Shown here: piece after piece, positions 1,758-24,343 of the stretch
Layout of the letters: every line of letters begins with the position of its first letter
How positions within the stretch are numbered: the stretch's first letter is position 1
Source: Armatimonadota bacterium
Lineage (GTDB): Bacteria > Armatimonadota > Zipacnadia > Zipacnadales > UBA5352
NCBI GenBank assembly: GCA_034722055.1
Contig: JAYENL010000154.1
Span: 1 to 24,343 of the forward strand
DNA length: 24,343 bases
Direction: 5' to 3'
Position numbers and translations under genes: made by a program
The notes under the pieces: model-generated
The model's database searches: none
What the model was told of the DNA's origin: nothing
The model's input: only the letters and a program-made list of their open reading frames with translations

Positions 1758-1987
1758 CTCCGCTCACCCTTACTCCCGAGGCTTCGCCACGGTGAGCGGC
1801 AGTTTCCGCGCGCGGCGCAGGAGGACCTCCGCTCGGCCGCAATGGAGGCTCAGCCGTCAGCATCAGTGCATCCCTCTCGAGCAGCTCCAGCAGAGGTGCC
1901 GCAGGCGGCTGCGGAGAAACCGGGCAACGCCGCCCGGGTCACGTGTTCCGTCGGGCGGCGCTGTCACGTCCCTGCGGAGCAATCATC

Positions 1988-7300: not shown

Positions 7301-7423
7301 GCTCTCGATCTCCCGCTGCAGCCGGTCGGGCTCCAGCTCGCTGTTCCAGGACCAGAACGGCGCCCCCCGATAGATGGCTGATGGGCTGATCCACTGCTCC
7401 TCGAGCGCTCCCAGTTCGCTCAC
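4364..7423 (-). CDS. Large glycoside hydrolase, GH106 (alpha-L-rhamnosidase)-like, with C-terminal beta-sandwich domains
   Basis: 1019 aa, GTG start with GAGGGAG upstream. Motifs 'PFWSWN', 'GMGGAFMHSRYGL..PYLSERW', 'YDEDRWPSG.AGG', 'FTDEP', 'LTGH', 'PGIDLL', 'ELYGCTGW' and 'KRDYPAS'. No signal peptide is evident. Confidence 0.75.
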   Translation of the reverse strand: MSELGALEEQWISPSAIYRGAPFWSWNSELEPDRLQREIESMHGAGMGGAFMHSRYGLKTPYLSERWFECVTACVQKCRELDMKAYMYDEDRWPSGPAGGLVTRENPQFRLKYLSASFDEPDPATDKVHAVFDVQLDDDGRLVSYQKIAGPGEVMSADEVSAERALFFCPGFQEPSGWTNDGGYLDTLDLEAVAEFLRVTHEAYADRYGDVMGEIIPAVFTDEPSYGAQIHGTVDGRHRIPWTCALADEFERRRGYSLPDRLPEVVLPLADGEFSKVRHDYFRTITELFVEAFSEQVGQWCGEHDIALTGHMLAEQTLASQRQAIGAAMPHYEFMQWPGIDLLRDQCDELLTAKQCTSVADQLGAERVLTELYGCTGWDWRLEGHKFIGDWQWVCGINFRCPHLTHYSLAGGAKRDYPASIRDHSPWWPYYDTVEDYFARLSVMLTAGRPIRDVLVIHPIESGWGLTTGPEGTEAIERLNEQLNGIIYELMGQHYDFDLGDESLLSKHARVEGETLTVERMTYQVVLVPPSITLRQSTLELLEELVEAGGTVIFAGDAPRLIDGEPDDRPAMLRGKALSSLAEPQSVIAALQDVLHRRVRVTREGQHADFVWAMLREIDDGYLVFIQSHDRENSHAVTVSVDADGPIVEWDAMTERRIEVAPWEADGRVAFEVELGPTGSALFTIGIEVPEAGEREPRRTVADRTELSGPFDIERTEPNTMPLDYCQVRIADEEFSEPVPTLKADEQIRARYGLGTRLGREHQPWYLYTTGVVDTEPRDTCQLRYSFHVTALPTTCHLALESPEDYTVTVNGAEVSKVDGWWVDDDIETIDITAQLQKGENEVLLTFDYRPTMELENMYLVGEFGVASLDEEASNPGNMTLVAPPQTLELGSWVGQGLDFYGAAVRYMVTVQRPAEGQRCQVWLPEVECTAAALHVNGESFVMPWPPFAADITDALTEGENEVAVEIIGGRKNILGPLHTPWKPWTGPGEFDPNNPDWRYQYYLNDHGLMEPVMVQVLE

Positions 7424-8760: not shown

Positions 8761-9234
8761 TCATATCACGCCATCGTCGCCGATGTCATCGTCCTCGAAG
8801 AAACTGTCCCGCCGCACCGACGGCATCGAGACCTCCAGCACCAGCGCCGGCCCCAGCCCCGTGAAGCAGTGGCCCGTCCCCGGCGCCATCGCCAGCACGT
8901 CACCCTGCTCCATGATGCGCTCCCCATCGTCGAGGCACATCCGGATGCGGCCCTTCAGCACGTAGAAGGTCTCGTGCTTGACCTCGTGGTGGTGCTGCGG
9001 GCAGGTCTGGCCGTCGAAGAGGAACAGGAACTTGCCGCAGTAGCCGTGCTCCGTCTCGTTGGCGACCCAGAACTCCGTCTCCCCCACCTCATCGAAGCGC
9101 TTCAGGCCGAAGTCCAGCGGCAGCGGCTCCACCTCGGGCATGGTCAGCCCCCATGCCTGCATCTGCTCCTCGATGGCCGCCAGGGCGCGCGCCCGCTGGG
9201 GCCCCGCAAGCTCCACGTCGGCGTACTTGCCCAT
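8761..9234 (-). CDS. D-lyxose/D-mannose isomerase family cupin
   Basis: 157 aa from ATG 9234 (RBS GAGGAG). Contains 'LDFGL..F...G', 'YCGKFLFLFDGQTCPQHHHEVKHETF', 'H.F' and 'LEVSMPS...DSFF', the cupin metal-binding pattern of D-lyxose ketol-isomerases. Confidence 0.8.
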   Translation of the reverse strand: MGKYADVELAGPQRARALAAIEEQMQAWGLTMPEVEPLPLDFGLKRFDEVGETEFWVANETEHGYCGKFLFLFDGQTCPQHHHEVKHETFYVLKGRIRMCLDDGERIMEQGDVLAMAPGTGHCFTGLGPALVLEVSMPSVRRDSFFEDDDIGDDGVI

Positions 9235-9274
9235 GGATGGCTCTCCTCGCCGAAGGCTCTTCGACGCCGATGAG

Positions 9275-9302
9275 AGAATACTACCCTGACGCGCGACGTC
9301 AA
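9275..9302 (-). promoter_or_regulatory. Putative sigma70-type promoter for the cupin isomerase gene, overlapped by a short palindrome
   Basis: Minus strand reads TTGACG (9302-9297), 16 nt, TATTCT (9280-9275), about 40 nt upstream of the ATG at 9234. The palindrome TGACG-N5-CGTCA (9287-9301) overlaps the -35 box. Confidence 0.5.
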
Positions 9303-9344
9303 GCACTCACCACTACTCCGCCCGCCGCTGGAGGAGCGTGCAGC

Positions 9345-10712
9345 ATGTCTCTGCCCGCTGACTACTGGTCGAACGTCGATGCCGGCAGCATTCCGAAGCT
9401 GGTCACCGACACCATTCCCGGCCCTCGCTCGGAGGAGCTGAATCGCCGGGGCACCGCACACATGATCGGCTACTCCAGCCAGGTGCGGCTCTTCCCGGTG
9501 GCCTTCGAGAGAGGACATGGGGTCACGCTCACCGACGTGGACGGCAACACCTACATTGACTTCTCGTCGGGGATCTACGTGACCACGCTCGGCCACTGTC
9601 ACCCCAAGATATCCGAGGCCGTGGCCTCAGCAGCCAGGCAGCTCATGAACTGCCACGACTTCAACACCCCCGTGAAGGTGGCGCTGCTGGAGAAGCTGGC
9701 GGAGGTGCAGCCGTGGGACCTGACGGGCATGCAGCTTTATGACAGCGGCACCACCGCCGTGGAGGCCGGGCTGCGCGTGTGCAGGGCGGCCACCGGCAAC
9801 CATGAGTTCATCTCCTGCTTCATGGACTTCCACGGCAAGACTGGTCACGCCGTCAGCCTCGGCAGGATGAAGCCCGTCAACGGACCGGGCAGAAGTCAGG
9901 GCTTCTACCTGGTGCCCCGCCCGGACCCCTACCGGCCGATGTTCACCACCGCCGAGGGGCAGATCGATACCGACGCCTACCTCGACTTCTACGACGAGTT
10001 CATCGAGAAGGCCACCACCGGGCAGGTGGCGGCCTTCGTCCTCGAGCCCGTCCAGGGCTGGGCGGGCTCGATCTTCCCGCCCGATGACTTCTTCCCCAAG
10101 CTGCGGCAGTTCTGCGACGAGCGGGGCATCCTGCTGATGGCCGACGAGGTCCTCACCAGCATGGGTCGCACCGGGAAGTACTTCTGCATGGAGCACTGGG
10201 AGACGGCGCCCGACGTGATCACCGTGGGCAAGGGCTTCGGCAACGGCTTCCCGGTGACGGGGATGCTGGTCTCCGACAAGTACAAGGAGAGCATCGCCAC
10301 CATCTCCGCCTCCACCAGCTACGGGGGCAACCCCATGGCCTGCGCGGCGGCGCTGGCGAGCATCGAGGCCATGGAGGAGGAGGGTCTGCTGGAGCACGCT
10401 CTGGAGCTGGGCGAGTTCATGCTCCAGCACATGCGCGGCATCCGCGATCGGCACCGGATCGTCGGCGACGTCCGGGGCCTGGGCTGCCTGCTGGGCATCG
10501 AGCTGGTGAAGGACCGCGAGACCAAGGAGCCCTTCGAGGAGGCGGGCCGGGCCGTCTACCAGCGGGCCTTCGAGAAGGGCCTGGCCTGGGTGCCGGCCTG
10601 GCACATCCTCCGGATGTCCCCGCCCATCGTCATGCAGAAGGAGGTCGCGGCCAAGGGCCTGGAGATCATCGAGGAGGCCATCGACGAGGTCGAGCGCGAG
10701 CTGGGATACTGA
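9345..10712 (+). CDS. PLP-dependent class III aminotransferase (GabT/ArgD-like)
   Basis: 455 aa from ATG 9345 (RBS GGAGGAG). Motifs 'DVDGNTYIDF', 'LGHCHP', 'FHGKT', 'VLEPVQG', 'LMADEVLTSMGRTG', the PLP lysine in 'DVITVGKGFGNGFP', 'TSYGGNPMAC', 'GDVRGLG' and 'LRMSPP'. Confidence 0.92.
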   Translation: MSLPADYWSNVDAGSIPKLVTDTIPGPRSEELNRRGTAHMIGYSSQVRLFPVAFERGHGVTLTDVDGNTYIDFSSGIYVTTLGHCHPKISEAVASAARQLMNCHDFNTPVKVALLEKLAEVQPWDLTGMQLYDSGTTAVEAGLRVCRAATGNHEFISCFMDFHGKTGHAVSLGRMKPVNGPGRSQGFYLVPRPDPYRPMFTTAEGQIDTDAYLDFYDEFIEKATTGQVAAFVLEPVQGWAGSIFPPDDFFPKLRQFCDERGILLMADEVLTSMGRTGKYFCMEHWETAPDVITVGKGFGNGFPVTGMLVSDKYKESIATISASTSYGGNPMACAAALASIEAMEEEGLLEHALELGEFMLQHMRGIRDRHRIVGDVRGLGCLLGIELVKDRETKEPFEEAGRAVYQRAFEKGLAWVPAWHILRMSPPIVMQKEVAAKGLEIIEEAIDEVERELGY

Positions 10713-10750
10713 CCGGCTCGACCTCGGCCGACGGATCGGGCCGTGGGCCC

Positions 10751-10779
10751 GGACGCGGGCGAGGGCGCCCGCGTCCCAG
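10751..10779. repeat. REP-like GC-rich hairpin inside the operon
   Basis: Perfect 11-bp stem GGACGCGGGCG-AGGG-CGCCCGCGTCC. Its reverse complement shares the core GCRGGCGCCCTCGCCYGCG with the element at 17237-17261. No U-tract follows directly. Confidence 0.6.
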
Positions 10780-10815
10780 TGTTTACTGCTGGTGACTGGT
10801 GGCTGATAGCTGTCA

Positions 10816-12294
10816 ATGACCGTATACCTTACCTTCGACATCGGGACCACCGCTCTCAAGACCGCCCTCGTGGGTGAGGACGGGGCGGTGCTGGCCATCG
10901 CTGAGGAGGAGTACTCCCCGCACACGCCCCAGCCGGGGCGCATGGAGATGGAGCCGGAGCGCTACTGGGAGGCGGCGGTGGCGGGCTCGCGCCGGGTCGT
11001 CGCGCGCGCCGGTATCGACCCCGGCCGCGTCGCCGCCATCGGCCTCAGCTCCCAGGCACAGAGCTTCCTGGCGCTGGACGCCTCCGGCCGGCCTCTGACG
11101 CCGGTGATCGTCTGGCTGGACGGCCGGGCCCGCGAGCTGGCGGAGCGGTGGGCCACTGACTGGCTGTCGGCACAGCGCTACCGGGCGATCTCCGGCTACC
11201 CGTGGGTGCCACACGAGCTGACGCTGTTCAAGATCGCCTGGCTGGCCGAGAACCGGCCTCAGATGCATGCCCGCGCTGCGTGGTTCCTCTGCCTCCCGGA
11301 CTACCTGGTCCTCCGGCTTACGGGAGAGGTCGCAACGGACTACAACATCGCGCAGATGAGCGGCATGCTGGATCTGCGCGCGGGCCGGTGGCACCAGGAG
11401 CTGCTGCAGGCGGCACGCATCTCCGAGGATCAGCTTCCGACCGTCCACGGGCCCGGGACGCCGGTGGGCGAGGTCACCGCGGTTGCCGCCGGCGAGCCGG
11501 GCATCCCGGCGGGCACCCCCGTCTGCGTGGGCTGCAACGATCAGCTCGCCGGGGCCATCGGCGCCGGCAACGTGCGGCCGGGCGTGGTCACCGAGACCAC
11601 CGGGACCGCGCTGGCGGTGGTCGCCACCACCGCCGAGCTGCTGGACGATGAGCGCCTCTTCGTCGGCCGCCACGCTGTCGAGGGCGCATCGTACGCCATG
11701 CCCTTCGCCCCGGTCTCGGCCGCGGTGCTGACGTGGTTCCGCGACCTCTGCGGCGAAGCCGGCGGCTGGGATGAGTTCCTGGCGGGCGTGGAGGACGTCC
11801 CCCCGGGCAGCGACGGGCTCACGGTGGTGCCGCACTTCTCGGGCACCGCCTCGCCCACGTTCAACCCCGACGCCCGGGGCGCCATGGTGGGACTCACACT
11901 GGCCCACGGCCGGGCGCACATCGCGCGAGCCATCATGGAATCCTGCGCCTGCGTCCTGCGAGAGCTTCTGGAGCCGGTCACCGACCACGGCATCGACCTG
12001 CGCACCGTCTGCTCCCTCGGCGGCGCGGCCCGCAGCGACACCTGGCTGCAGATGAAGGCCGACATGCTGGGGGTGCCCGTCGAGCGCCCGGCCTGCCCGG
12101 AGGCGGCCTCGCTGGGCGCGGCCATGCTGGCGGCGACCGGCACCGGGGTGTTCGAGTCCCTGCAGGACGCCGCCGATACCTGGTATCGACCCAGCGCGAC
12201 TTTCCAGCCTGATCCGAAGCGGGCTGCAGCCTGCGCCGAGATCCACGAGCGCTACCTCGACGCTTACCACCGCCTCTACGGGCGGGAGGAGTGA
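10816..12294 (+). CDS. FGGY-family carbohydrate kinase (xylulokinase-like)
   Basis: 492 aa. Motifs 'FDIGTTALK', 'IGLSSQ', 'IVWLDGRA', 'LPDYL..RLTG', 'GCNDQ', 'TTGT', 'PHFSG...P', 'RAIMES' and 'GGAARSDTWLQMKAD'. Confidence 0.92.
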   Translation: MTVYLTFDIGTTALKTALVGEDGAVLAIAEEEYSPHTPQPGRMEMEPERYWEAAVAGSRRVVARAGIDPGRVAAIGLSSQAQSFLALDASGRPLTPVIVWLDGRARELAERWATDWLSAQRYRAISGYPWVPHELTLFKIAWLAENRPQMHARAAWFLCLPDYLVLRLTGEVATDYNIAQMSGMLDLRAGRWHQELLQAARISEDQLPTVHGPGTPVGEVTAVAAGEPGIPAGTPVCVGCNDQLAGAIGAGNVRPGVVTETTGTALAVVATTAELLDDERLFVGRHAVEGASYAMPFAPVSAAVLTWFRDLCGEAGGWDEFLAGVEDVPPGSDGLTVVPHFSGTASPTFNPDARGAMVGLTLAHGRAHIARAIMESCACVLRELLEPVTDHGIDLRTVCSLGGAARSDTWLQMKADMLGVPVERPACPEAASLGAAMLAATGTGVFESLQDAADTWYRPSATFQPDPKRAAACAEIHERYLDAYHRLYGREE

Positions 12295-12298
12295 GCCG

Positions 12299-13084
12299 AT
12301 GTCATACCTGTTCCGCGACCAGTCCTCGACCACGCTACGCGAGCACATCGAGCAGCAGTCCCTGCTGCTGCTGCCCGTGGGCACTACCGAGGAGCACGGT
12401 CCGCACCTGCCGGTGGACACGGATGTGCGCATCGCGGAGGCCTACGGCCACGCCCTCGCCCGCGAGATCGCCGGCGAGCTGCCGGTGCTGCTGATGGACG
12501 CCATCCGCTACGGCTACTCCATGAGCATCATGCGCCAGTGGCCGGGCACCATCGTCGTCGGCACTCGCACCTTCATGGACTACGTCTTCGGCGTCTGCCG
12601 CTCGGTGCTGGAGATGGGCTTCAGGCACCTCGCAGTGCTGGACTGCCACGGGCATCACAGCGGCCTGCTCAGCGGGGTGAACCGGGAGCTGTGCGACGCC
12701 TGCGACGTGGCCATCGCCATCATCAGCCCGGCCAGGCTCTCTGCCGAGGCCTTCAACGAGGTGCGCCGGTCCGACCGTGGCGGCGCCATCCACGGCGGAG
12801 AGTGGGAGACCTCGCTGCTGCTGCACATCAGCCCCGAGGTGGTGGACATGTCGCTGGCCGGCGACGAGGACGCCATGCGCTACCACTCGGAGTTCGTGGC
12901 CGGCGACAACTTCACGGGCGGTCAGAAGGTCACATGGTCCACCTGGTATCTGCAGCCGTCTCACACGGGCATCTACGGCGATCCCACGGTCGCCACCGCC
13001 CAGACCGGCGAGGCGATCATGCGCGCGGCCGTCGAGACCGGCGCCCGCTTCCTGCGCGAGTTCTACCACCACGCCCCAGCGTGA
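12299..13084 (+). CDS. Creatininase (creatinine amidohydrolase) family metallohydrolase
   Basis: 261 aa. Motifs 'LPVGTTEEHGPHLPVDTD', 'YGYS.....WPGT', 'IHGGEWETS' and 'GIYGDPTVATAQTGE'. Starts 4 nt after the kinase stop codon. Confidence 0.9.
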   Translation: MSYLFRDQSSTTLREHIEQQSLLLLPVGTTEEHGPHLPVDTDVRIAEAYGHALAREIAGELPVLLMDAIRYGYSMSIMRQWPGTIVVGTRTFMDYVFGVCRSVLEMGFRHLAVLDCHGHHSGLLSGVNRELCDACDVAIAIISPARLSAEAFNEVRRSDRGGAIHGGEWETSLLLHISPEVVDMSLAGDEDAMRYHSEFVAGDNFTGGQKVTWSTWYLQPSHTGIYGDPTVATAQTGEAIMRAAVETGARFLREFYHHAPA

Positions 13085-13094
13085 GGTGACAGTG

Positions 13095-15722
13095 ATGGCC
13101 GAGTCGCTGGATGAGATCCGCCGGGAGCTGGATGGCCGGGAGCTGCTGGTGGTGCCCTACTGCCACGCGGACTGGGCCTGGACGCACTCCCGCCGCTGGC
13201 ACGCAGTGCGCTACACGCTGGCTATCGATGAGGTCCTCGACATCATGGCGGCCCAGGACGAGGCCGGCGTGAGTGGCGATGCGCCGGAGGCCTACCGCTG
13301 GTACACCGACTGCTACCGCACGCAGATCGTGCCCTTCCTGCAGGCCCGGCCGGAGCGCGAGGCGGAGCTGCGCCGGCGCATCGCCGAGGGCCGCATCGCC
13401 ATCTGCGGCGGATACGCCAACGTGCGCATCAACCACGTCCCCGGCGAGCTGTTCGTCCGCGGCATGGTCCTGGGGCGCCGGGAGTGGGAGCGGCTCTTCC
13501 CCGAGGCGGAGCTGACCGTGCACTCCGACATCGTGGACGTGGCCGTCGGCCACCCGCAACTGCCGCAACTGCTGCGCCTGGCGGGCTATCGCTCCCTGCA
13601 GTTCTGGCGCCCGGAGGAGGCACTGAATGCTAAGGGCATTCCGCACCACTTCGTGTGGGAGGGCCTGGATGGCACGCGCGTGCTGGCCGCACGGGGCTGC
13701 TACGGTGGCCTCAACGCGCTCGGCTACGCCCCCGAGAACTTCGCGGAGGGCTGGGACGAGACCGTGCGCTTCTGGTGGGAGAACCTGCTGGAGTACAAGC
13801 TCCAGCACTCGCCCGCCGACCTGCTGTGGCTGCAGCGCGGCGCCGACGACGCCCGGCCGCTGCGCACCAACGTGGCGTCCGACGAGCCCATGGACCTGCC
13901 GGGGCTGATCCGGGCCTGGAACGACCGGGAAAGCTCCTCCATGCGCTTCGCCACGCCGGTTGAGGCCTTCCGGCTCCTGGAGCAGCGGCGCGAGGAGCTG
14001 CCGGTCGTCAGCGGCACGCTCGACCCCTGCGACGTGGCCTACAACGCGGCCTGGGGCGGCTCGCACGGCCTGTGGCGGCTGAGGCAGGAGGCGGCGCGGG
14101 AGATCGGCGTCACCGAGATGCTGGAGGCCCTCGGCGCCGCGTCGGGTGCAACGGACGCTGACCCGGATGCCGCACAGGAGCGTCTGGACGACCTGTGGCG
14201 CGACGCGCTGCTCTTCTCGGCCCACGCCACCCAGTGGCTCTTCGAGGAGGACTTCGGCGAGCTCTACGCCCTGGCGCAGAGCACTGTGACGCGGGCCCGC
14301 CGCGAGCAGCAGCAGGTGCTGCGCTCCCTGTCATCGCGAATCGACTGCCCCGAGGACGCGGCGGAGGTGCTGGTCAATCCGCTGCCTCGCGAGCGGGAGG
14401 TCACGGTGCCGCTGCGCGTCACCTTCGTCCGCGGCGAGCGTCCCGGCGCGCCGGAGCCCATGCGGCTGATCGACGGCGCCGGCCGGGAGGTGCCCTGGCA
14501 GCTTCTACGAGACCTGCGCCACGCCAACGCCACGTGGGAGTGCGATGTGCTGGCCCGGGTCACGCTGCCGCCGGGCGGCTGGACGGTCCTGCGCTGGGAG
14601 GAGGCCCCGCCGGCCGAGGACCCCGGGCCCGCGGGTGAGGCGTCGGCGGAGTGCATCGAGGCCGACCTGCTGAGCCTGCACTTCGACCGCGGCCGACTCA
14701 TGCGCATCGAGGATCGGGCGGCTGGTCGGGAGTGGCTCGCGCCGCAGCACACGCCCTTCGGCCATCTGCGCATCTACGACGTGGACACCACCGCGCCGCT
14801 GCACGTGGGGCCCATCCTGGGGCGCACGGACGCGGTCTGGGAGCGCTGGGGCGTGATCGAGCGCGGTCCGCTCCGCTGGAGCGTGCGCTGTGAGGGCGCC
14901 ATTGGGGCCTGCCCGGCGGCCATGGAGGTCCGCCTGTACCGCGGCCAGCGACGCGTGGAGTTCGCAGTGGAGGTCGAGTGGGACGGCCGCGGCGGCTTCC
15001 TGGCCTCGCACCTGCCCTGGCCCGGCCCTGGCGAGCTCTTCGGCGACATGCCCTTCTGCGTGGAGCCCACGCCGCTTGACGACGAGCCCTATGTGGGCAT
15101 CGAGCGCGCCCGCGAGGGGATGTTCATCGCCCGCAGCTTCGTGGACCACGTGGGCGACGGTGGCTCGATCGCCTATCTCTCGCACGATGGCGACCGCTAC
15201 TTCATCCGCGACCGCGAGCGCAGCACGCTGGCGCATATCCTCATCAACTCCGTCCGCGAGCCCTACGCGGAGTGGGAGGAGAGCGTCAACCGCACCATGC
15301 GCGGCAAGGGCCTGCATCGCTTCACCTTCAGCCTCGTCCCCCATGAGGGCGACTGGCGCGACGGCGGCCTGTGGCGGCTCTCCGAGGAGCTGCGCACACC
15401 GGTGCTGCAGACGCGACCGCTCGGGGCGGGGGACCTGCCGATGCACGGAGAGCTGCTGGCCGTCGAGCCCGGGAACGTGAGCCTTACCGCCTGCTACGCC
15501 GACGCCGGCCGGGTGCTGGTGCGGCTGTGCGAGCTGCACGGGACGCACACGGAGGCCATGGTGCGGCTGCCCTTCGAGGCTGCGGAGGCGGCGCTGGTGG
15601 ACCTGGCCGGCCACAGCCTCGACGCCCGGCCGCCGCGCGTGGACGGCCGCACAGTTGCCCTGCCCATGTCCCCGCATCAGATCGCCACGCTGGCGCTGAC
15701 TGTGGAGGAGGAATCATCGTGA
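13095..15722 (+). CDS. Divergent GH38 (alpha-mannosidase-like) glycoside hydrolase
   Basis: 875 aa from ATG 13095; the track start at 12777 overlaps the previous gene. Motifs 'VPYCHADWAW' (HxD), 'GRIAICGG', 'GELFVR', 'DVAVGHPQLPQLL', 'FVWEGLDGTRV', 'VNPLP..R', 'G.HRFTFSLVPH.GDW' and 'LVRLCE..G'. Confidence 0.8.
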   Translation: MAESLDEIRRELDGRELLVVPYCHADWAWTHSRRWHAVRYTLAIDEVLDIMAAQDEAGVSGDAPEAYRWYTDCYRTQIVPFLQARPEREAELRRRIAEGRIAICGGYANVRINHVPGELFVRGMVLGRREWERLFPEAELTVHSDIVDVAVGHPQLPQLLRLAGYRSLQFWRPEEALNAKGIPHHFVWEGLDGTRVLAARGCYGGLNALGYAPENFAEGWDETVRFWWENLLEYKLQHSPADLLWLQRGADDARPLRTNVASDEPMDLPGLIRAWNDRESSSMRFATPVEAFRLLEQRREELPVVSGTLDPCDVAYNAAWGGSHGLWRLRQEAAREIGVTEMLEALGAASGATDADPDAAQERLDDLWRDALLFSAHATQWLFEEDFGELYALAQSTVTRARREQQQVLRSLSSRIDCPEDAAEVLVNPLPREREVTVPLRVTFVRGERPGAPEPMRLIDGAGREVPWQLLRDLRHANATWECDVLARVTLPPGGWTVLRWEEAPPAEDPGPAGEASAECIEADLLSLHFDRGRLMRIEDRAAGREWLAPQHTPFGHLRIYDVDTTAPLHVGPILGRTDAVWERWGVIERGPLRWSVRCEGAIGACPAAMEVRLYRGQRRVEFAVEVEWDGRGGFLASHLPWPGPGELFGDMPFCVEPTPLDDEPYVGIERAREGMFIARSFVDHVGDGGSIAYLSHDGDRYFIRDRERSTLAHILINSVREPYAEWEESVNRTMRGKGLHRFTFSLVPHEGDWRDGGLWRLSEELRTPVLQTRPLGAGDLPMHGELLAVEPGNVSLTACYADAGRVLVRLCELHGTHTEAMVRLPFEAAEAALVDLAGHSLDARPPRVDGRTVALPMSPHQIATLALTVEEESS

Positions 15723-17149
15723 CACGCGGACTGCAGAGCATCACGCTGGGCCTGGTGCCCATCAGTAAGTTCGTGTTCAGCCGCGAGGACGCGCTGCACT
15801 ACAAGGGGCTCATCGAGCAGCGGCTGCGAGAGCTGGGCGTGCGCTTCGTGAGCATAGACTCGATCACCGAGGACGGGACGCTGTTCCGGCACGAGGATCT
15901 CCCGCGGGTCATCGAGCACCTCCGCCGGGAGGGCGTGGACGCTATCTTCTGCCCACACTGCAACTTCGGCACCGAGGACGTGGCCGCGCTCCTCGGCCGC
16001 GAGATGAGCCTGCCGTATCTGCTGTGGGGGCCGCGCGATGAGGAGCCGCTGCCCGACGGCACCCGCCTCCGCGACACCCAGTGTGGGCTGTTCGCCACCA
16101 GCCAGATCCTGCGGCGGATGGACGTGCCCTTCACCTACATCCCCAACTGCCGCCTCGACGATGCCGCCTTCGACCGCGGCGTGCTCGGCTTCCTGCGCGT
16201 GGCGTCGGTGGTGCGGGCCTTTCGGGGCATGCACATCGGGCAGATCGGCCAGCGCAACGACTTCTTCTGGACCGTGATGGTCAATGAGGCCGAGCTGCTG
16301 GAGCGGTTCGGCATCGAGGTCTATCAGATCTACCTCACAGATGTCCTGGATGAGGTGGAGCGGCTGGCAGCCTCTCCCAGCGCGGAGCTAAAGGAGCTTG
16401 TGGAGCGGATGCGTGAGGAGGTCACCTTCGAGGGCCTCGGCGATGGCCGGGTGCGCGCGGTGGCGGCGCTGAAGCTGGTGCTGACCGCGCTGGCGGAGGA
16501 GCATGGCCTGTCGGCCATCGCCCAGCAGTGCTTCCCCGGCTTCCAGCAGCGATTCGGCGTCTACCCCTGCTACGCCAACAGCCTGCTCACCGATGAGGGC
16601 GTGCCGGTCATCTGCGAGACGGACGTGCATGGCGCCATCACCGCATGCATCCTCCAGGCCGCCGCGCTGGGCGAGAGCCCGCCATTCTTCGCCGACCTCA
16701 CCATCCGCCATCCCGGCAACGACAATGCCGAGCTGCTCTGGCACTGCGGGGCCTTCCCGGCCTCGCTGGCCGCCGACGATGAGGACCTGCGCGTCGGGGA
16801 GCACTTCATTATGCCCCAGGACGCCACCGGCGTCTGCCACTGGCGCATCCGGGGCGGCGACATGACCATCGCGCGCTTCAGCGATGATCGCGGCGACTAT
16901 CGGCTCGGGTTCGGAGAGGGCCGGGCCACCGATGGCCCCGAGACGGTCGGCACCTACACCTGGATGGAGGTGGACGACTGGCCTGCCTGGGAGCGCCGCT
17001 TCATCCGCGGTCCCTACATCCACCACGTCGCCGGCGTTCACGGCCACTGGGCCACGATCCTCCACGAGGCCTGCCGCTACATCCCCGGCCTGCAGCCCGA
17101 CCCCATCGGGACCGATGGCAGGGAGCTGGAGGACTACTGGTGGCGGTGA
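15719..17149 (+). CDS. L-fucose/L-arabinose isomerase family protein
   Basis: 476 aa from GTG 15719, overlapping the GH38 stop (GTGA), RBS GGAGGAGG. Motifs 'HCNFGTE', 'LRDTQCG', 'IGQIGQR', 'CETDVHGAIT' (ExD), 'LLWHCG', 'TIARF' and 'GPYIHHVAG'. Confidence 0.85.
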   Translation: MTRGLQSITLGLVPISKFVFSREDALHYKGLIEQRLRELGVRFVSIDSITEDGTLFRHEDLPRVIEHLRREGVDAIFCPHCNFGTEDVAALLGREMSLPYLLWGPRDEEPLPDGTRLRDTQCGLFATSQILRRMDVPFTYIPNCRLDDAAFDRGVLGFLRVASVVRAFRGMHIGQIGQRNDFFWTVMVNEAELLERFGIEVYQIYLTDVLDEVERLAASPSAELKELVERMREEVTFEGLGDGRVRAVAALKLVLTALAEEHGLSAIAQQCFPGFQQRFGVYPCYANSLLTDEGVPVICETDVHGAITACILQAAALGESPPFFADLTIRHPGNDNAELLWHCGAFPASLAADDEDLRVGEHFIMPQDATGVCHWRIRGGDMTIARFSDDRGDYRLGFGEGRATDGPETVGTYTWMEVDDWPAWERRFIRGPYIHHVAGVHGHWATILHEACRYIPGLQPDPIGTDGRELEDYWWR

Positions 17150-17448: not shown

Positions 17449-18201
17449 CTACGGGCCGGCGACCACCAGGCGATTGACGGGCGGGTAGCGGTCCTCGGAG
17501 ACCAGCTCGCGGCCCTGTGCATCCCGGAGCTCGCGGTAGACCAGCACCCGGTAGCCCGGAGCGCCGCGCACCAGCCGGTGGCACTCGCCGGGCCGCAGAT
17601 CCGAGTCGATGCGCAGCACCTCCCGCGGCGGCAGGACGCCCCGAACCTTCGTGTGCAGCGTCGCCATCGGACCTGCCTCGCGGCCGAGAATGGCGACGCC
17701 CAGCGAGTCCTCGGTTGGCTGGGCCTCGATGCGCACCGGCCACGGATGGGAGTTGCGCAGCCGCAGGTCGATGTCGTACTGGGCGACGGCCGCGTCCCGC
17801 CCCAGCGGGCAGTAGTGGGGCGCCCACTGGTGGCGGTGCCGCTCCACGATCTCCAGGCCGGCCACCAGCGCGGCGTTGTAGAGCGTGGTGGAGGTCTGGC
17901 AGACCCCGCCGCCCCACGCCGGGTGCATCTCCCCGCCGTAGCTGACGGGGGCCTTCAGGTAGCCGCGGTCAGCCGTCCACGGGCCCACGGTACGGTTGAA
18001 GGAGAGGACCTCCCCGGGCTCCAGCACCGTCCCGTGCAGGGCCCTCGCCGCTCGGAGGGCGTTGGCTCGCTGGTTCCGCTCCCGGTCCTGCAGCGGCGTC
18101 CGGTAGCTGCCGACGAGCGCCCGGCTTGGAGGAATGGCTGCCGCCGCCACCAGGCCGATGGTCGCCAGCATTCCCGCCGCCCATGCGAACTTGCCGCCCA
18201 T
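17449..18201 (-). CDS. VanW-domain protein with an N-terminal signal/anchor and a C-terminal G5-like segment
   Basis: 250 aa from ATG 18201 (RBS GGGAGG). Motifs 'R..N...AA..L.GTVLEPGEVLSFNRTVGP....RGY..AP', 'GGGVCQTSTTLYNAAL.AGLEIVERHRH' and 'Y.PLGRDAAV....IDLRLRN'. The tail 'G.PGYRV.VYR...ELVSEDRYPP' is G5-like. Confidence 0.88.
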   Translation of the reverse strand: MGGKFAWAAGMLATIGLVAAAAIPPSRALVGSYRTPLQDRERNQRANALRAARALHGTVLEPGEVLSFNRTVGPWTADRGYLKAPVSYGGEMHPAWGGGVCQTSTTLYNAALVAGLEIVERHRHQWAPHYCPLGRDAAVAQYDIDLRLRNSHPWPVRIEAQPTEDSLGVAILGREAGPMATLHTKVRGVLPPREVLRIDSDLRPGECHRLVRGAPGYRVLVYRELRDAQGRELVSEDRYPPVNRLVVAGP

Positions 18202-18217: not shown

Positions 18218-21200
18218 CTACGGCTCGATGACGAACTCATCCGCGGCCCCGTAGGACCGCACCGTGGGGTCATACATGTTGTAGGCAACTGTGGGCATGG
18301 CTCTGTAACGCCCTGGGACCTCCGCCCGCATCCGGTAGCTGAGCGTCCTGGCGCCGATCGGCAGGAACTTCACGGCGAAGGCCACCATCTCGTCGCGCAC
18401 GATCTGGTCGCTCCACCACCTGTCCCACTCCCATTGCCGGAGCCGGCCGCGGTCGATGACCTCGCAGCCCGCCGGGATGGGGTCCTCGATCACGAGGAAC
18501 TCGTGCGCTCGTCCGGCGCGCACCGTCAGCGTCACCTCCACCACATCACCGCTGCGGTAGCGCGTCCGCCGGCCGGGCACGGTCTGATCCAGCAGGGCCA
18601 GGCCGCGCCTCGCCGGCGTCTTCACCTGCCGGTAGGTGCGCTCGAGCACCAGCGCCGAGCCGCCGGTCACGGGCGTGGCGAGGTCGGCCCTCACGTGCTG
18701 ACTCAGCTCCAGCGTGTAGTAGAGCCGCCCCGCGCCCGGAGAGGCGCGCTCGACGGCCACCTCAACGTTCCCCGGCCGCAGCAGCTCTGGCGGCACCTCC
18801 ACCACCCTCTCGGGTCGGAAGACATCCTCGGCGGTGAAGCGGCCGGAGAAAACCTCGCGCTCGCCAACTGTCACAGTGGCGATGAAGTCCGGCGACAGCT
18901 CACCGCTGACCCGCAGGTAGTCCGCCAGCGCATAGAGCACGAAGGCCGTGTCGCGCGTGGAGTACCAGTGGTCGCCTCTGCGATGCACGAGCAGCCACCG
19001 GACCACCTTCGACAGGCGGGTGTCGTCGGGCGTCAGCCGACAGCCCGCTGAGAGCGCCAGGGCCGTGGTCTCGGCGTCGGAGAACACGCCGCCGTGCGCC
19101 TCCCAGGAGATGAGGCCCCCGGTGGATTCGGCCTCTCGCCACAGCTTCCGGAGCAGGTCGCGGGCCGGCTCCTCCTCGTCCATGGCGTGCAGCGCCAGGC
19201 AGGCCAGAGCCCGGGACCGCACCGGGGCCTCCCGCACGCGATCCACCAGCGCCTGGACGCCGTTGCTCTCCGAGGCCGCCCGCACCACGTCGCCCCGGCC
19301 GGCCACGGCCAGCGTGTAGGCCACCCACGCCATGTCGGTGGCTTCCAGCGTGCCCTTCTCGTAGAGCTCCGCCAGCCGCCCGATGCCGGCTACAAGCACC
19401 GGCGCCGTCACCTCAAAGCCGGCCTCCCGCGCCTGCACCAGCGCGAAGACAACATAGGCCGTCATCCACGGATCCTGATCATCGTAGCCCCACCATCCCC
19501 ATCCGTCGTGGCCGCGCTGGTAGTCGTAGATCTTCAGCAGGCCGCGCTCCACCATCTTCGGGAGGCGCTGGCGCAGCTCCGGCTCCTCGATCCCGAACTC
19601 GTCCAGCATCCTGGCGATGATCACGTCAGGCAGGAAGCTGGAGGTGGTCTGCTCGATGCACCCGTAGGGGTACTGCGCCAGGTAGTCCAGCGATCCCAGC
19701 ATGGCGGAGGCGATCGACGGCGTGAGGCGAACTGTCAGCGAGGGCGTGCCCTCGATGACGTCCTTGCGCACCGGGAGCACCTCCACCGTGCGGCCTCCGG
19801 CGGCGCCTGAGCGCAGCTCCACGCGGCGGCGCCCGAAGGGCAGCACGGGGATGGCCCGCTGCATGGCGTCCTCCAGCTCCCCGGCCTTCGCCCACACCCG
19901 CACGGTCTGATCGCCCACCGCCGGCGCCTCGACCTCCCACTCGAACCGCCGCGCCTCTCCGGCCGCCACCGCTCCGGACTGCTGCGGCCGACCGTCGATC
20001 GTCAGGTAGTCCCCGTCCAGCCCCACCTCCGCCTGCAGCGAGCCGTCGGTGCGGTTGTGCACCACGCCTCCGACGCGCAGCCGGTCGCCCTGGGTGATGA
20101 AGCGCGGCGCCTCCAGCCGCACCAGGAACGGCTTGGTCACCACCGCCTCGTGGGTGCTCTGGCCCACCAGGGTCTGGGCCGTGTGCGCCCGCGCCGTCGC
20201 GCGCCAGGTGGTGAGGTTGTCGGGCAGGGCGAACTCGAAGGTGGCCTCCCCGGCCTCGTTGGTCACCGCGGAGGGCGCCCAGAAGGCGGTGTCGCGGAAG
20301 CGCCGCCGCGTCTCGATCTGCGCGCCGGCCCCCTTCCAGCCGTCGCTGAGGTAGATCATGGGGAACGAGAAGTCCGTGTACACCCGGTGGCTGCGCCGGG
20401 GGTAGAAGGCGTCAACGATCTCCTGCGTCCGGTCGGGGTACAGCGCGAAGAGGGCCTGGTCCACCACCGCCAGCGAGACCTCCGCGCGGGCGGGCCGGCC
20501 CTCCGCGTCCGTCGCCCGCACCGTGTAGACAGCCGCGTCGCCGGGACGATACTGTCGCCGATCGCTGCTCACCTCCAGCTCCAGCGTCCGGCTCTGGGGC
20601 TCAATGCGCAGCTCCAGCGCCTCCTCCACAAAGCGCTTGTCGTGCACGAAGGCCACGCTCACCCAGCAGTTCGGCGCCCACTCGGGCTTCAGCTCCACCT
20701 CGACCACGGTGGAGTTCTCGCGCAGCTTCACCAGGCGGCGGGAGTGGATCCGGCTACTCTCGACGGTCAGCAGCGCCGTGGTCGGCACCAGTTCGGTGTT
20801 GATGAGGATGCGCGCCGTCTCGCCCTCGCTGTAGCTGCGCCGGTCGGCGACCAGGTCTAGCTCCCCGTAGGGGTAGTCGTAGGTGAAGCGGGCGCGGCGT
20901 GCCACCCACAGCCACGTGCTGCCGGTGATGCGGTTGCCGCGGCTGTCGCGAGTGGTCGCCAGCACCCGGTAGCTGCCCTCCGCGCCCGGCGTGAAGGTCA
21001 CGGTCGCCGTCCCGTCCGCTCCGGTCTGCCAGTCGGCGACGGCCCGCTCCTCGAAGTGCTCCTCGTCCTCAGACCACTCCGAGAGCTCCAGGCGGACCTC
21101 GCCGTTGGCCTGCACCGGATTGTCGTCGTAGTCGATGGTGCGGATGGTGACCGTGGTCTCCCTGCCCACGTGCAGGATCGAGGGCTCCGCCTCCACCTGC

Positions 21201-22936
21201 ACCCGGAAGGCCCCCTGCACCACCAGCACTCTGTGCGAGGCGCTCACCGAGCGCCGGCTGGCATCGGTTACCTGCACCTCGATCCTGTAGGTCCAGTCGG
21301 AGGGCCCGCGCCGGCGCTCCTCCTCTTCCTCGAACGTCGTGGGCACCGAGAGCCTGAACCGGCCCGCGCTATCGGTCCTCCCCTCCCCCGTCGTGACCAC
21401 CTCGCCGCCGCCATAGTCGCCGTAGTAGTCGAAGTAGCCGCCCTCGGCGGCCCAGCCCTCGTCCTCCGGCCACCACCAGGCCTCTGAACGCGTGACGTAA
21501 TACCGCACCTCCGCGTCCGCCACCGGTGCCCCGTAGAAGTAGCTGGCGGTGGCGGTCACCTCGATGGGATCGCCCCGCACGTAGCGCTCGCGGGATGTGC
21601 CGACCTCCACCTCCCACTCCGGCTTGCGATACTCGGCGACGACGAAGCGCGAGTAGTGCGGCTCCCCGGCCACCGCGGTCTTCAGCGCGTAGACGCCCGG
21701 CAGCGCGGCATCCGAGAGGCTCAGCGTGCCGTGGAAGGAGCCCATCTCGCTGGTGTGGAGGCTCGCGGTGTGGACGAGGTTGTCCATGTCATCGCGCACC
21801 TGCACCTCAACGGGCAGGTCTGCGGGCACGCCGTAGCCGCCCTCTTCGAGCTCCCGCACGATGCCCTTGAAGTGCACATCGTGGCCCGACCGGTAGGCGG
21901 GCCGATCCGTGTAGCTGTAGACGCGGTAGCCCTCCTCCTCAGAGCTCCAGGGGCGGTACCACCCCTCCACAGCGGCCGTTGATGGCCCGTCCCCGGCTCT
22001 GATCACGATGCGGCCCTCCGCCTCCTCCTCGGCACTCTCCAGGGCGAGCTTCACCAGCCCGTCGGAGTCCGTCACCCCCTCGGCCAGCAGCGTGTCCTCG
22101 CGCACCGCCTCCACACTCAGGCCCGGCCGTGGCTCGCCGGTGGCGATATCCACCGTCCACGCCAGCACCGACCCCGGCATGCGCTTGCAGACCAGCGCCA
22201 GGTCGGTGACAGTCAGCACCTCCACCCGCTGCAGCTCGCCCACGCGGAGCGCCACCGGGTAGACGCCGGGCTCCAGCCGCGGCAGGTCCATCCGCATGGC
22301 GAAGACGCCCTCACCGTCGCGCCCGGTGATCTCCTCGGTGGTGCGCCGCACCCGCTCCAGGCGGTCGCTGGCGTCCAGGTCCAGCTCATCCTCATCGGCC
22401 CGGCGATCGCCCAGCAGGGCCGCCAGGTGCGTTTGCCCGGTCACCTCCGTCGCCTCGAGGCTCAGCCGGTAGATCGCCATCTCCATGTCGCCGAAGGGGG
22501 CGAAGCCGCGCACGCGAAGCTGTGGCTCCTCATCGGGGGTGAACACGCGCGTGGGCACCGACACCTCCATGAAGGGGTCCACCGGCTGCAGCTCCAGGCG
22601 CAGATCGAGCGTCTCGCCCTCCGTCACCGTCACATCCCGGCCGCCCCGGAGCCGGTGGGCCTCGGAGCGAACCTCCAGGTCGTAGCTGGCGGCCGGAATC
22701 TCCGCGAACCTGAAGTGCCCGCGCGCGTCCGTGCGCCTCGTGAAGCGCCCCTCGCTCCGGTATCCTTGAGAGAGTGTGACGCGGGCGTCAGCGATGGGGA
22801 CTCCCAGCTCCTCCGCGATCACCACGCCCTGGACGCTGCCGCGGGGCGTCTCCGACATCAGCGCCCACGCCATCACCGCGCCAGCGGCCAGCAGGGCCGC
22901 GCAGAGGACCGCCGCTCGCGAGCGACTCTCACGCAT
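18218..22936 (-). CDS. Bacterial alpha-2-macroglobulin (thioester-containing) with an N-terminal carboxypeptidase-regulatory-like domain
   Basis: About 1572 aa; start is ATG 22936 or 22942, overlapping the upstream stop. It has an N-terminal TM segment, then 'GSVQGVV....G.PIADARVTL...TDARGHFRF.EIPAASYDL', 'YTDRPAYRSG', 'EYRKPEWEV', 'EVSLAVVD', 'RRRFRDTAFW', 'LPDNLTTWR', thioester 'YPYGCIEQ' (CIEQ 19660-19649), 'GWGWW', 'WYSTRDT', 'EDPIPAGCE' and 'MYDP'. Confidence 0.93.
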   Translation of the reverse strand: MRESRSRAAVLCAALLAAGAVMAWALMSETPRGSVQGVVIAEELGVPIADARVTLSQGYRSEGRFTRRTDARGHFRFAEIPAASYDLEVRSEAHRLRGGRDVTVTEGETLDLRLELQPVDPFMEVSVPTRVFTPDEEPQLRVRGFAPFGDMEMAIYRLSLEATEVTGQTHLAALLGDRRADEDELDLDASDRLERVRRTTEEITGRDGEGVFAMRMDLPRLEPGVYPVALRVGELQRVEVLTVTDLALVCKRMPGSVLAWTVDIATGEPRPGLSVEAVREDTLLAEGVTDSDGLVKLALESAEEEAEGRIVIRAGDGPSTAAVEGWYRPWSSEEEGYRVYSYTDRPAYRSGHDVHFKGIVRELEEGGYGVPADLPVEVQVRDDMDNLVHTASLHTSEMGSFHGTLSLSDAALPGVYALKTAVAGEPHYSRFVVAEYRKPEWEVEVGTSRERYVRGDPIEVTATASYFYGAPVADAEVRYYVTRSEAWWWPEDEGWAAEGGYFDYYGDYGGGEVVTTGEGRTDSAGRFRLSVPTTFEEEEERRRGPSDWTYRIEVQVTDASRRSVSASHRVLVVQGAFRVQVEAEPSILHVGRETTVTIRTIDYDDNPVQANGEVRLELSEWSEDEEHFEERAVADWQTGADGTATVTFTPGAEGSYRVLATTRDSRGNRITGSTWLWVARRARFTYDYPYGELDLVADRRSYSEGETARILINTELVPTTALLTVESSRIHSRRLVKLRENSTVVEVELKPEWAPNCWVSVAFVHDKRFVEEALELRIEPQSRTLELEVSSDRRQYRPGDAAVYTVRATDAEGRPARAEVSLAVVDQALFALYPDRTQEIVDAFYPRRSHRVYTDFSFPMIYLSDGWKGAGAQIETRRRFRDTAFWAPSAVTNEAGEATFEFALPDNLTTWRATARAHTAQTLVGQSTHEAVVTKPFLVRLEAPRFITQGDRLRVGGVVHNRTDGSLQAEVGLDGDYLTIDGRPQQSGAVAAGEARRFEWEVEAPAVGDQTVRVWAKAGELEDAMQRAIPVLPFGRRRVELRSGAAGGRTVEVLPVRKDVIEGTPSLTVRLTPSIASAMLGSLDYLAQYPYGCIEQTTSSFLPDVIIARMLDEFGIEEPELRQRLPKMVERGLLKIYDYQRGHDGWGWWGYDDQDPWMTAYVVFALVQAREAGFEVTAPVLVAGIGRLAELYEKGTLEATDMAWVAYTLAVAGRGDVVRAASESNGVQALVDRVREAPVRSRALACLALHAMDEEEPARDLLRKLWREAESTGGLISWEAHGGVFSDAETTALALSAGCRLTPDDTRLSKVVRWLLVHRRGDHWYSTRDTAFVLYALADYLRVSGELSPDFIATVTVGEREVFSGRFTAEDVFRPERVVEVPPELLRPGNVEVAVERASPGAGRLYYTLELSQHVRADLATPVTGGSALVLERTYRQVKTPARRGLALLDQTVPGRRTRYRSGDVVEVTLTVRAGRAHEFLVIEDPIPAGCEVIDRGRLRQWEWDRWWSDQIVRDEMVAFAVKFLPIGARTLSYRMRAEVPGRYRAMPTVAYNMYDPTVRSYGAADEFVIEP

Positions 22937-24343
22937 CGCCATCACCGCCCCCCTGCAGAGCCTCAGCCCGGGCAAGCGTGGTGCGCACGGCAATCCACAC
23001 CGCCGCCACGAGGGCTATCGCCACTACAACGCCGGCCTTGACCGCGCGCGAGATGGGCCCCAGGCCGGCCACGATCGGCCCAAGCTGCAGCGCCACCAGC
23101 GCCGCCCCCACCAGGGCCGCATGTGGCGCCGCGGCCAGGCAGACGGCCCTGTCGCGATCCGTGGACCACGCCGCCAGCACCATCCACACCAGCTCGCCCA
23201 CCACCAGGCCCACCAGCAGTCCCTGCAGCGCGCCCTGCCCCCACACCGCCAGCATTGCCGCAGGCAGCAGAGCCACACCCAGCATCGGCAGCGGCGCCCG
23301 CGCCATCATCCGCCGCAGGGCATCGAGCGGGTCACCGGCCTCCGCCGCGGCCCGCCAGGACCCGGCGCCCTGCGCCACCAGCCCCAGCACCGCCAGCGCG
23401 CCCACGATCAGCCCGAAGTAGACGTAGTGCTCCTCCAGGTCCACCGCCTGGTGGCCACCCGTGGTCTCCAGCACCATCCGGTAGGCCGCAAGCAGGACCA
23501 CGATGGTGAAGCTGCCGACCAGCAGGGGCGCCGCCAGCCCGCGCCGCTTCCGCGCCGCCGCGCTCCCGATTACCGCCAGCGGCGCCACGCCGGCCGCCAG
23601 TGCCAGCGCCTCCCCGTAGCCGTGCAACACCTTGAAGGCCACCGCCACCATCGCCAGCGCCACCAGGCCCAGGGCGAAGGCCTCCAGCGCCGGCCGCCCC
23701 TCCTCGGCACCGGTCTCGGCCGCCAGCCACGCCGCCATCCCCATTCCCACGGCGCCGGTCAGCACCACCAGCAGCGGACTCCACTGGCCGAAGAGCTTCC
23801 AGGCGAGCATCAGGGCCACCAGCACCGGCAGGAGCGTCGCCACCAGCGCGATCAGCGCCTCTCGCAGGCCGACATCGCCCTCATCGTCCGCCGAGGCCAG
23901 CGTCGAGGGGATCATGGCCCCCAGTCCAGCGCTCGCCACCAGCAGCACGGGCAGCGGCCAGTAGGCCTCGGCGGCGTCGCTGCCCCCGAAGTGCTCCAGG
24001 CCCAACCGCGCTCCCAGCGCCCCCGCCACGGCCACCAGCGCGAAGATCTCCACACCGAGCACCGCCGGCGAGTCAGTAGCCTCCTCGCGCGCCCCCATCG
24101 GGGCCAGGCACAGCCGCCAGAGCAGCGCCGCCAGCACAGCCGAGAGGGCAAAGCCGACGAGGGGTACGGTGGGGGAGGCAGCGAAGAGGATCAGCACCAG
24201 CGCCGGCCCGGCGGCCGCGGTACTGATCAGGCCGATGGCGCGCGCCAGCCATCCGCTGCTGGCCCATGAGCGGCTGGCCTCGATGGAAGCGTAGACCCCG
24301 GCTACCGCGCCGATCAGCAGTCCCGAGCCCAGGCCCATGCCGG
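22929..24343 (-). CDS. Multi-pass membrane protein resembling a membrane pyrophosphatase (HppA) scaffold without catalytic loops; 5' end probably outside the window
   Basis: At least 469 aa with roughly 15 hydrophobic helices. The frame is open to the window edge, and the stop overlaps the A2M start. The CDS is well supported; the HppA resemblance is by-eye alignment to a recalled consensus (see findings). Confidence 0.7.
   Translation of the reverse strand, partial: GMGLGSGLLIGAVAGVYASIEASRSWASSGWLARAIGLISTAAAGPALVLILFAASPTVPLVGFALSAVLAALLWRLCLAPMGAREEATDSPAVLGVEIFALVAVAGALGARLGLEHFGGSDAAEAYWPLPVLLVASAGLGAMIPSTLASADDEGDVGLREALIALVATLLPVLVALMLAWKLFGQWSPLLVVLTGAVGMGMAAWLAAETGAEEGRPALEAFALGLVALAMVAVAFKVLHGYGEALALAAGVAPLAVIGSAAARKRRGLAAPLLVGSFTIVVLLAAYRMVLETTGGHQAVDLEEHYVYFGLIVGALAVLGLVAQGAGSWRAAAEAGDPLDALRRMMARAPLPMLGVALLPAAMLAVWGQGALQGLLVGLVVGELVWMVLAAWSTDRDRAVCLAAAPHAALVGAALVALQLGPIVAGLGPISRAVKAGVVVAIALVAAVWIAVRTTLARAEALQGGGDGDA

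Follow-up and report, generated by a model that had tools for sequence, protein, structure and literature searches.

The thioester alpha-2-macroglobulins (A2Ms) of bacteria are periplasmic protease traps anchored in the inner membrane (PMC4498604; this and the other papers cited by PMC number are drawn on in excerpt). At the Escherichia coli locus of ECAM, an A2M with a lipobox, protease trapping and wall repair have been proposed to go together, and PBP1c is often encoded beside A2M (PMC3328433). In Pseudomonas aeruginosa, MagD requires its operon partners for anchoring and stability, and these partners stabilise one another (PMC3735191). In Clostridioides difficile (Ldt4 and Ldt5), domains of the VanW type that bear a Cys-His-Asp triad act as L,D-transpeptidases, a class of enzymes that can repair cross-links without new synthesis; only three of seven VanW proteins from outside C. 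difficile were active (PMC11348318). The window described here, a stretch of 24,343 nucleotides from an Armatimonadota bacterium (GenBank assembly GCA_034722055.1, contig JAYENL010000154.1), carries an operon in which an A2M gene and a VanW gene follow a gene for a relative of the membrane pyrophosphatases (mPPases; HppA, PF03030) that appears to have lost its catalytic site, hereafter the pseudoenzyme.

To our knowledge, only one function has been described for the mPPase fold. A sequence-only reading of the window had taken the minus-strand frame at 22929-24341, which is hydrophobic and open over 470 residues, for an mPPase homolog with its helix segments in HppA order, and all the segments that it quoted lie in this frame. 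The profile-profile and structure searches that it called for gave significant matches. A search of 1.84 billion representative sequences returned 114 proteins at E<=0.001, mostly of 490-560 residues; the family alignment comprises 93 near-full-length database sequences, a second set holds 80 rows derived from loci, and the two sets overlap (173 rows in total). When aligned by hhalign with a reference set of 15 HppAs from relatives, the family gave a probability of 97.7 (E 2.3e-12) over 490 colinear columns, at about 18% identity. AlphaFold models of the window protein and of a full-length homolog, made without templates and from alignments without HppA, reached a pLDDT of 93, and segmentation of the full-length homolog gave 17 helices. 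Among 48,161 chains, VIA-align ranked the Vigna radiata pyrophosphatase 5gpj first (Z 29.4, rmsd 2.7 Å over 433 residues), with the helices in the same order (residues 1-437 on 139-766), and 8b37 second (Z 27.5), the next fold reaching only Z 10.2. Foldseek gave 36 matches at E<=0.001, and all among the matches listed are mPPases; the first unrelated proteins follow at E 0.064-0.084. TM-scores to mPPases of up to 0.71 agree with the 15-17-helix two-ring fold. The family profile scored a median of 52 bits against 33 HppAs from Armatimonadota and of 29 bits against 73 others, with all reversed controls of these 106 real HppAs below zero, and in 5.8 billion sequences it recovered two PF03030 proteins (E 2.6e-9 and 2.4e-7). 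The similarity of the pseudoenzyme to HppA exceeds chance. The sequence-only reading had been staked on a profile or structural match, on the mPPase topology and on intact homologs in other genomes, and all three were found. The phylum's own HppA is only one candidate donor: the Armatimonadota HppAs score higher at the median, yet several archaeal and Patescibacteria HppAs equal or exceed them.

Pfam and NCBIfam gave no match on the window protein or on the homolog P0003, and PF03030 is absent among the 25 families listed for the 93 members; both resources overlook the whole family. Profile searches of PDB sequences put unrelated hydrophobic proteins above the mPPases (best mPPase E 0.16 in one search, none in the other). 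Because the fold searches do not back these top matches, they were taken as composition effects, and myomaker and RnfA were discarded as relatives. An ESM Atlas search gave low-score leads only (0.80-0.81).

The pseudoenzyme and its parts lie in the window as follows.

22929..24343, minus strand: mPPase-fold putative pseudoenzyme, open reading frame of 470 residues in the window with transmembrane helices (TM) 3 to 17, TM1-2 (66 residues) lying beyond the gap (open reading frame, alignment, models)
24066..24110, minus strand: short linker CLAPMGAREEATDSP replacing the catalytic 5-6 loop, TKAADVGAD...DNVGDNVGD being deleted (alignment with HppA)
24042..24056, minus strand: GVEIF, with E98 at the ion-gate Asp position 6.50 (low alignment posterior of 0.38; gate set of PMC10897367)
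23613..23621, minus strand: GxG turn between TM10 and TM11 on the outward side, G in 91% and 96% of rows (family alignment)
23538..23564, minus strand: linker SAAARKRRG replacing the catalytic 11-12 loop, D..GP..DN...GNTTK being deleted (alignment with HppA)
23424..23483, minus strand: outward 12-13 region YR...HY, with R288 (95%), H305 (65%) and Y306 (82%) (family alignment)
23148..23174, minus strand: linker AAWSTDRDR replacing the catalytic 15-16 loop, WDNAKK...GDTVGDP.KD being deleted (alignment with HppA)
23037..23054, minus strand: start of TM17 on the outward side, with R432 (84%) and K/R at +3 residues in 94% of rows (family alignment)

The absence of the catalytic motifs, with short linkers in their place, proved to be a property of the family. 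Seven of nine motif patterns occur in none of the 80 locus-derived and none of the 93 database rows, as compared with 13-15 of the 15 HppAs, and the remaining two are sporadic (a loose R..GGG in 3/80 and 7/93 rows, P.KD in 0/80 and 1/93). In loop 5-6, TKAADVGAD and DNVGDNVGD are deleted in the alignment (0/80 and 0/93, versus 15/15 HppAs); D..GP..DN and GNTTK of loop 11-12 are likewise found in 0/80 and 0/93 rows, versus 15 and 13 of 15 HppAs. The motifs of loop 15-16, WDNAKK, GDTVGDP and P.KD, with the nucleophile-binding D16.39, occur in 0/80 rows and in 0, 0 and 1 of 93, versus 14-15 of 15 HppAs. Among 25 functional positions of HppA, labelled by what we take to be the T. maritima residue numbers, 13 have been deleted or cannot be aligned, and across the family none of the remaining 12 is conserved. 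Along with the loops, the helices have lost their cytoplasmic extensions (median length 526 residues in the family versus 738 in HppA). The sequence-only reading, which had spoken of loop deletions only, thus held for all three catalytic loops and fell short on the extensions and on a 17th helix.

The ion gate of mPPases is made up of D6.50, E6.53/57, S6.54, D/N16.46 and K16.50 (PMC10897367). At these positions the window protein shows E, A, L, H and V (alignment posteriors 0.25-0.61). E at 6.50 is found in only 32/80 family rows, the neighbouring gate E is replaced by A and the S by L. R76 and E98 are retained at two gate positions in the window protein, where the gate lysine is a valine; family-wide, the gate R is present in 16/80 rows and the gate K is replaced by L, I or V. 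Catalysis has probably been lost. Because the two-ring fold was found and the catalytic and gate residues were not, the pseudoenzyme is best regarded as a homolog of the PF03030 proteins that probably no longer functions as one of them. An intact HppA is encoded elsewhere in the genome, on C100. This HppA (L001:1429-3699) has the motif GNTTKAAT, a Lys at 12.46, which is the signature of K+ independence (PMC10897367), and a 17th helix.

The open reading frame of the pseudoenzyme (GC content at third codon positions, GC3, of 0.90) is truncated on its 5' side at the window edge, which is a 100-N scaffold gap on G000:C154. An exact 127-bp duplicate flanks the gap (24217-24343 = 24444-24570). One contig, in one of four sequencing runs, bridges it and omits exactly the 227 letters of gap plus duplicate; the runs behind this contig belong to the same study as the possible source of this genome. 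The gap is an assembly artefact, since the bridging contig skips the 227 letters and a homolog from the same genus (P0002, 85% identical) is continuous across this position. In the databases the gene is split by the duplicate around the 100 N (G000:C154:24217-24570; L002:4217-4570) into the proteins P0001 and P0064. The start codon is probably the GTG at C154:24766, preceded by the ribosome-binding site GGGGGAGGG. This start adds 66 residues, the N-terminus that the sequence-only reading had wanted recovered, and gives a full length of about 536 residues with about 17 helices. A scan for promoters and terminators upstream of the gene found none. At L002:4977-8036 (+) a divergently transcribed gene encodes a protein of 1019 residues; a signal peptide is likely, and the match to oligoalginate lyase is weak (E 2.5e-7, well short of the cut-off).

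The family was found in 162 of 301 sampled Armatimonadota genomes, a tally that excludes G013 (E 1.5e-13), a probable HppA cross-match; a broader tally of 183/301 includes weak matches to intact HppA and was not used. The database names of members are Armatimonadota. A motif scan of 185,579 genomes, which probed the range beyond the phylum with one subfamily motif only, gave 60 loci, 57 of them with Armatimonadota-group titles, one unlabelled and two with other labels. With dN/dS at 0.08-0.25 in 6/6 pairs, the family is under purifying selection, and as its homologs are intact the gene is, as had been proposed, not a decaying pseudogene. No description of the family or of the operon was found in the literature covered, which was mainly open-access and without supplements. 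The pseudoenzyme belongs to a real, phylum-wide and apparently unannotated family.

The coupling to the next gene seen in the sequence-only reading was borne out, and the next gene encodes an A2M. The pseudoenzyme gene is the first of the operon, the A2M start overlaps it through ATGCGTGA, and the VanW gene comes third.

18218..22936, minus strand: bacterial A2M of 1572 residues, its ATG overlapping the pseudoenzyme stop (ATGCGTGA) (Pfam A2M, bMG10, A2M_BRD, TED and MG2 over cut-off)
22838..22915, minus strand: N-terminal hydrophobic helix of the A2M with the ExPxG motif (E in 66, P in 69 and G in 79 of 80 rows) (alignment)
19649..19660, minus strand: A2M thioester motif CIEQ (sequence)
17449..18201, minus strand: VanW-domain protein of 250 residues with an N-terminal hydrophobic helix, a weak G5 match and the motifs GGGVCQ, ERH and GRDAA (Pfam VanW, E 1.4e-44)

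An A2M gene lies directly after the pseudoenzyme gene in 14/14 close genomes and in 59 of the 60 loci of the motif scan, the 60th being truncated. Among 94 non-redundant loci, picked across the E-value range with long contigs favoured, 83 have a same-strand A2M N-terminus. In a blind test from the A2M side, for which 26 of 27 A2M loci were fetched (one being without upstream DNA), a divergent pseudoenzyme was directly upstream in 19 of 26 A2M loci without a known family match, and four more of these genomes carry it elsewhere. Pseudoenzyme and A2M co-occur even where they are unlinked, for example in G088, G101, G124 and G051. The VanW gene is on the same strand as A2M in 40/45 loci, and no gene cluster besides VanW recurs near the pseudoenzyme in more than 5/60 loci. 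Both genes are present but unlinked in f37 (L113, L116, L117, L119, L166-L168, L172, L176-L178), f32 (L118, L122, L162) and f18 (L131, L148, L165); in f37 and f18, the loci whose sequence extends downstream show no VanW gene next to A2M. The order is permuted at L111 (G246:C37), with A2M and VanW before the pseudoenzyme.

The strict thioester motif [YF]GCxEQ is present in 37/46 full-length A2M homologs and a CxEQ variant in 3 more. Some A2Ms of the module have an altered or unrecognised thioester (L108, L127 with YSSVEQ, L124, L091, L111, L123, L130), and A2M frames are split at L078, L097 and L130. A lipobox pattern was found in 4/80 A2M rows, none of them at a conserved position, and the hydrophobic helix and ExPxG are present instead. 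The VanW protein is a predicted L,D-transpeptidase: conserved Cys, His and Asp motifs appear in the consensus of 28 sequences, in which the conservation of the Cys is partly built in, as the selection pattern demanded the Cys motif. An adjacent pbpC (PBP1c) is not in the window, the next gene after A2M being VanW. A search for fused proteins of 1090-3110 residues found none at E<=0.001, which is weak evidence. Complex prediction with a full-length homolog and A2M residues 1-345 scored 0.01 in both runs, which counts neither for nor against a complex, and inter-protein covariation over 145 paired rows gave no clear inter-chain signal, the top pairs being scattered.

With inside and outside assigned by homology to mPPases, every one of the 8 outward segments between helices exceeds every one of the 8 cytoplasmic segments in conservation (mean 1.26 versus 0.67 bits); the outward segments are nearly fixed in length, and the cytoplasmic ones are unconserved and variable in length. 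R288, H305 and R432 are outward polar residues that HppA lacks, and R288 and H305 are gains specific to the family, because they align with G and P of HppA. The mPPase dimer is built from helices 10, 13 and 15 (PMC10897367), on which several of the conserved glycines are located.

The reading that we find somewhat probable is that an envelope module for protease trapping and wall repair has the pseudoenzyme as its scaffold or partner in the membrane, a role for which physical binding is something we infer. In a copy of a 17-helix membrane pyrophosphatase, the cytoplasmic active site would have disappeared together with most of the ion gate, and the dead pump would have been retained as a non-catalytic inner-membrane partner of the protease-trapping A2M. 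Its outward face and helix bundle would serve as docking site for the ExPxG stalk and the N-terminal helix of the A2M, and perhaps for the VanW L,D-transpeptidase as well, which would keep the trap beside the cross-link repair enzyme at the peptidoglycan. Such a role would be analogous to that of the lipid anchor of ECAM in E. coli, and to the supposed role of MagB for MagD in P. aeruginosa. The sequence-only reading had left channel, scaffold and anchor side by side; a scaffold or partner is now favoured and a channel less so, because the A2M pairing holds phylum-wide. Among the 301 genomes, 153 have both genes, 135 neither, 4 A2M only and 9 the pseudoenzyme only; all 4 genomes with A2M only are 80-89% complete, and at least 4 of the 9 with the pseudoenzyme only have it adjoining a truncated or split A2M. 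The scaffold reading also draws support from the frequent company of VanW, from the conservation on the outward face, from the scarcity of lipoboxes in these A2Ms as compared with ECAM, and from P. aeruginosa as a precedent for anchoring an A2M through proteins of its own operon. Several points weigh against a scaffold. The A2M cut-off behind this tally (E<=1e-70) was set after seeing the data, paralogous A2Ms reaching about 1e-65, and the genomes are related, so that the 2x2 table exaggerates independence. Some lineages have the operon broken up, 10 of the 94 loci with downstream DNA have no A2M, and VanW is not beside A2M in most unlinked loci. A second family copy of 600 residues (L098:4581-6383, G307:C35) stands without A2M in its 11-kb contig. 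The A2M has a hydrophobic helix of its own and may need no anchor. The K+R bias fits the assigned topology modestly (18.9 versus 11.3). The outward conservation may be a remnant left after the cytoplasmic half relaxed or, given the conserved glycines on the helices that form the mPPase dimer, may reflect a retained dimer interface.

A bolder version of the scaffold model, which we hold only tentatively, would give the mPPase fold its first role that has nothing to do with pyrophosphate. Found throughout the phylum, the pseudo-pump would then bring together a protease trap tethered to the membrane and a VanW enzyme for cross-link repair, and its old coupling core might even carry a signal of protease attack through the inner membrane. 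That the pseudoenzyme is instead a sensor or transporter of the module, relaying A2M cleavage or envelope damage across the membrane or letting a small product such as a peptide, muropeptide or ion pass by way of the old coupling funnel, seems rather unlikely. Seventeen helices are much to retain for a mere anchor, new conserved polar residues (R288, H305, Y306, Q419, R432) surround the former exit side, and two gate positions of the window protein are still R and E; yet the unconserved cytoplasmic segments of variable length offer no evident output surface, no charged residue of the membrane core is family-wide (the counts for E 6.50, the gate R and the gate K were given above), and VanW is the only recurrent neighbour. 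More doubtful still is a dedicated assembly or quality-control factor, not a stable partner, on which the exported A2M of 170 kDa would rely for insertion, folding or protection. Its place as first gene overlapping the A2M start, its presence with A2M even when unlinked and the mutual stabilisation of the Mag proteins (PMC3735191) would all suit it, but positive evidence for it is lacking and the data do not separate it from the scaffold model. The half-of-the-sites coupling of mPPases allows the pseudoenzyme to be imagined as a regulator of the genome's intact HppA through a heterodimer, with the glycines on the dimer helices at hand and a truncated maize VPP proposed as an antagonist (PMC5071666); of the 14 close genomes that carry the gene, 13 encode an intact HppA too, and the one that does not is 59% complete. 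We consider this very improbable, as HppA is present in 37/41 relatives with or without the pseudoenzyme gene, is not among the recurring neighbours and shares only about 18% identity with a protein that tracks A2M instead. A decaying pseudogene or a generic hydrophobic resemblance, to which the lack of Pfam and NCBIfam matches and the ranking in the PDB-sequence searches might point, is refuted by the gap between Z 29.4 and 10.2, the negative reversed controls, the two PF03030 proteins recovered by the family profile, the dN/dS values and the spread over 162/301 genomes, and has practically no chance of being right.

Elsewhere in the window, a 675-residue protein with DUF6785 and DUF6784 is encoded at 1943-3970 (+), and a carbohydrate cluster at 4364-7423 (-) and 8761-17149 comprises GH106 rhamnosidase-like, cupin, class III aminotransferase, FGGY kinase, creatininase-like, GH38 and fucose-isomerase-like genes. 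As called, the GH38 and fucose-isomerase-like frames overlap their neighbours, which places their true starts probably further downstream. The neighbours of the second family copy at L098 resemble, as recognised from sequence, a DNA polymerase B-type gene and hemC.

That a phylum-wide family under selection has kept all its helices while shedding the active site shows that the mPPase fold can be repurposed, and the family offers a natural minimal scaffold for probing the outer-ring helices, whose role has been called largely unknown (PMC10897367). The pseudoenzyme shares its fold and the order of its helices with the mPPases of V. radiata (5gpj, 4a01), Thermotoga maritima (4av3) and Pyrobaculum aerophilum (8b37); motifs at the helix ends can still be recognised, and the genome's own HppA has a 17th helix too. 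The pseudoenzyme differs from these mPPases in being about 200 residues shorter, without the three catalytic loops and the cytoplasmic extensions, with the gate mostly replaced, with its conservation on the outward face and in being tied to an A2M operon. The truncated plant vacuolar pyrophosphatase ZmVPP5, as far as its source excerpt describes it, is also a pyrophosphatase derivative without catalytic regions, but it is a single truncated gene highly similar to ZmVPP1, whereas the family here is old and has kept all helices with the loops excised.

As in the type I A2M locus of E. coli ECAM and PBP1c, a CxEQ thioester A2M gene stands beside a gene for a peptidoglycan enzyme. Here, however, the A2M has a hydrophobic helix and a carboxypeptidase-regulatory-like domain in place of a lipobox, the wall enzyme is of the VanW type and a polytopic mPPase-fold protein heads the operon. 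In MagABCDEF of P. aeruginosa an A2M homolog is likewise tied to the inner membrane by operon-encoded proteins, the partner role being proposed for the present locus, but the thioester cysteines are missing from MagD, and MagB spans the membrane with a single helix; here, where no search aimed at Mag genes was made, none resembling them was noticed. The third gene shares with C. difficile Ldt4 and Ldt5 a VanW domain with Cys, His and Asp motifs, from which its activity is predicted. The module thus resembles the A2M-PBP1c and Mag loci in its likely working but fails their defining features, and it represents a third arrangement for bacterial A2Ms, in which a VanW enzyme stands in for PBP1c and a protease trap has been paired with a wall enzyme independently.

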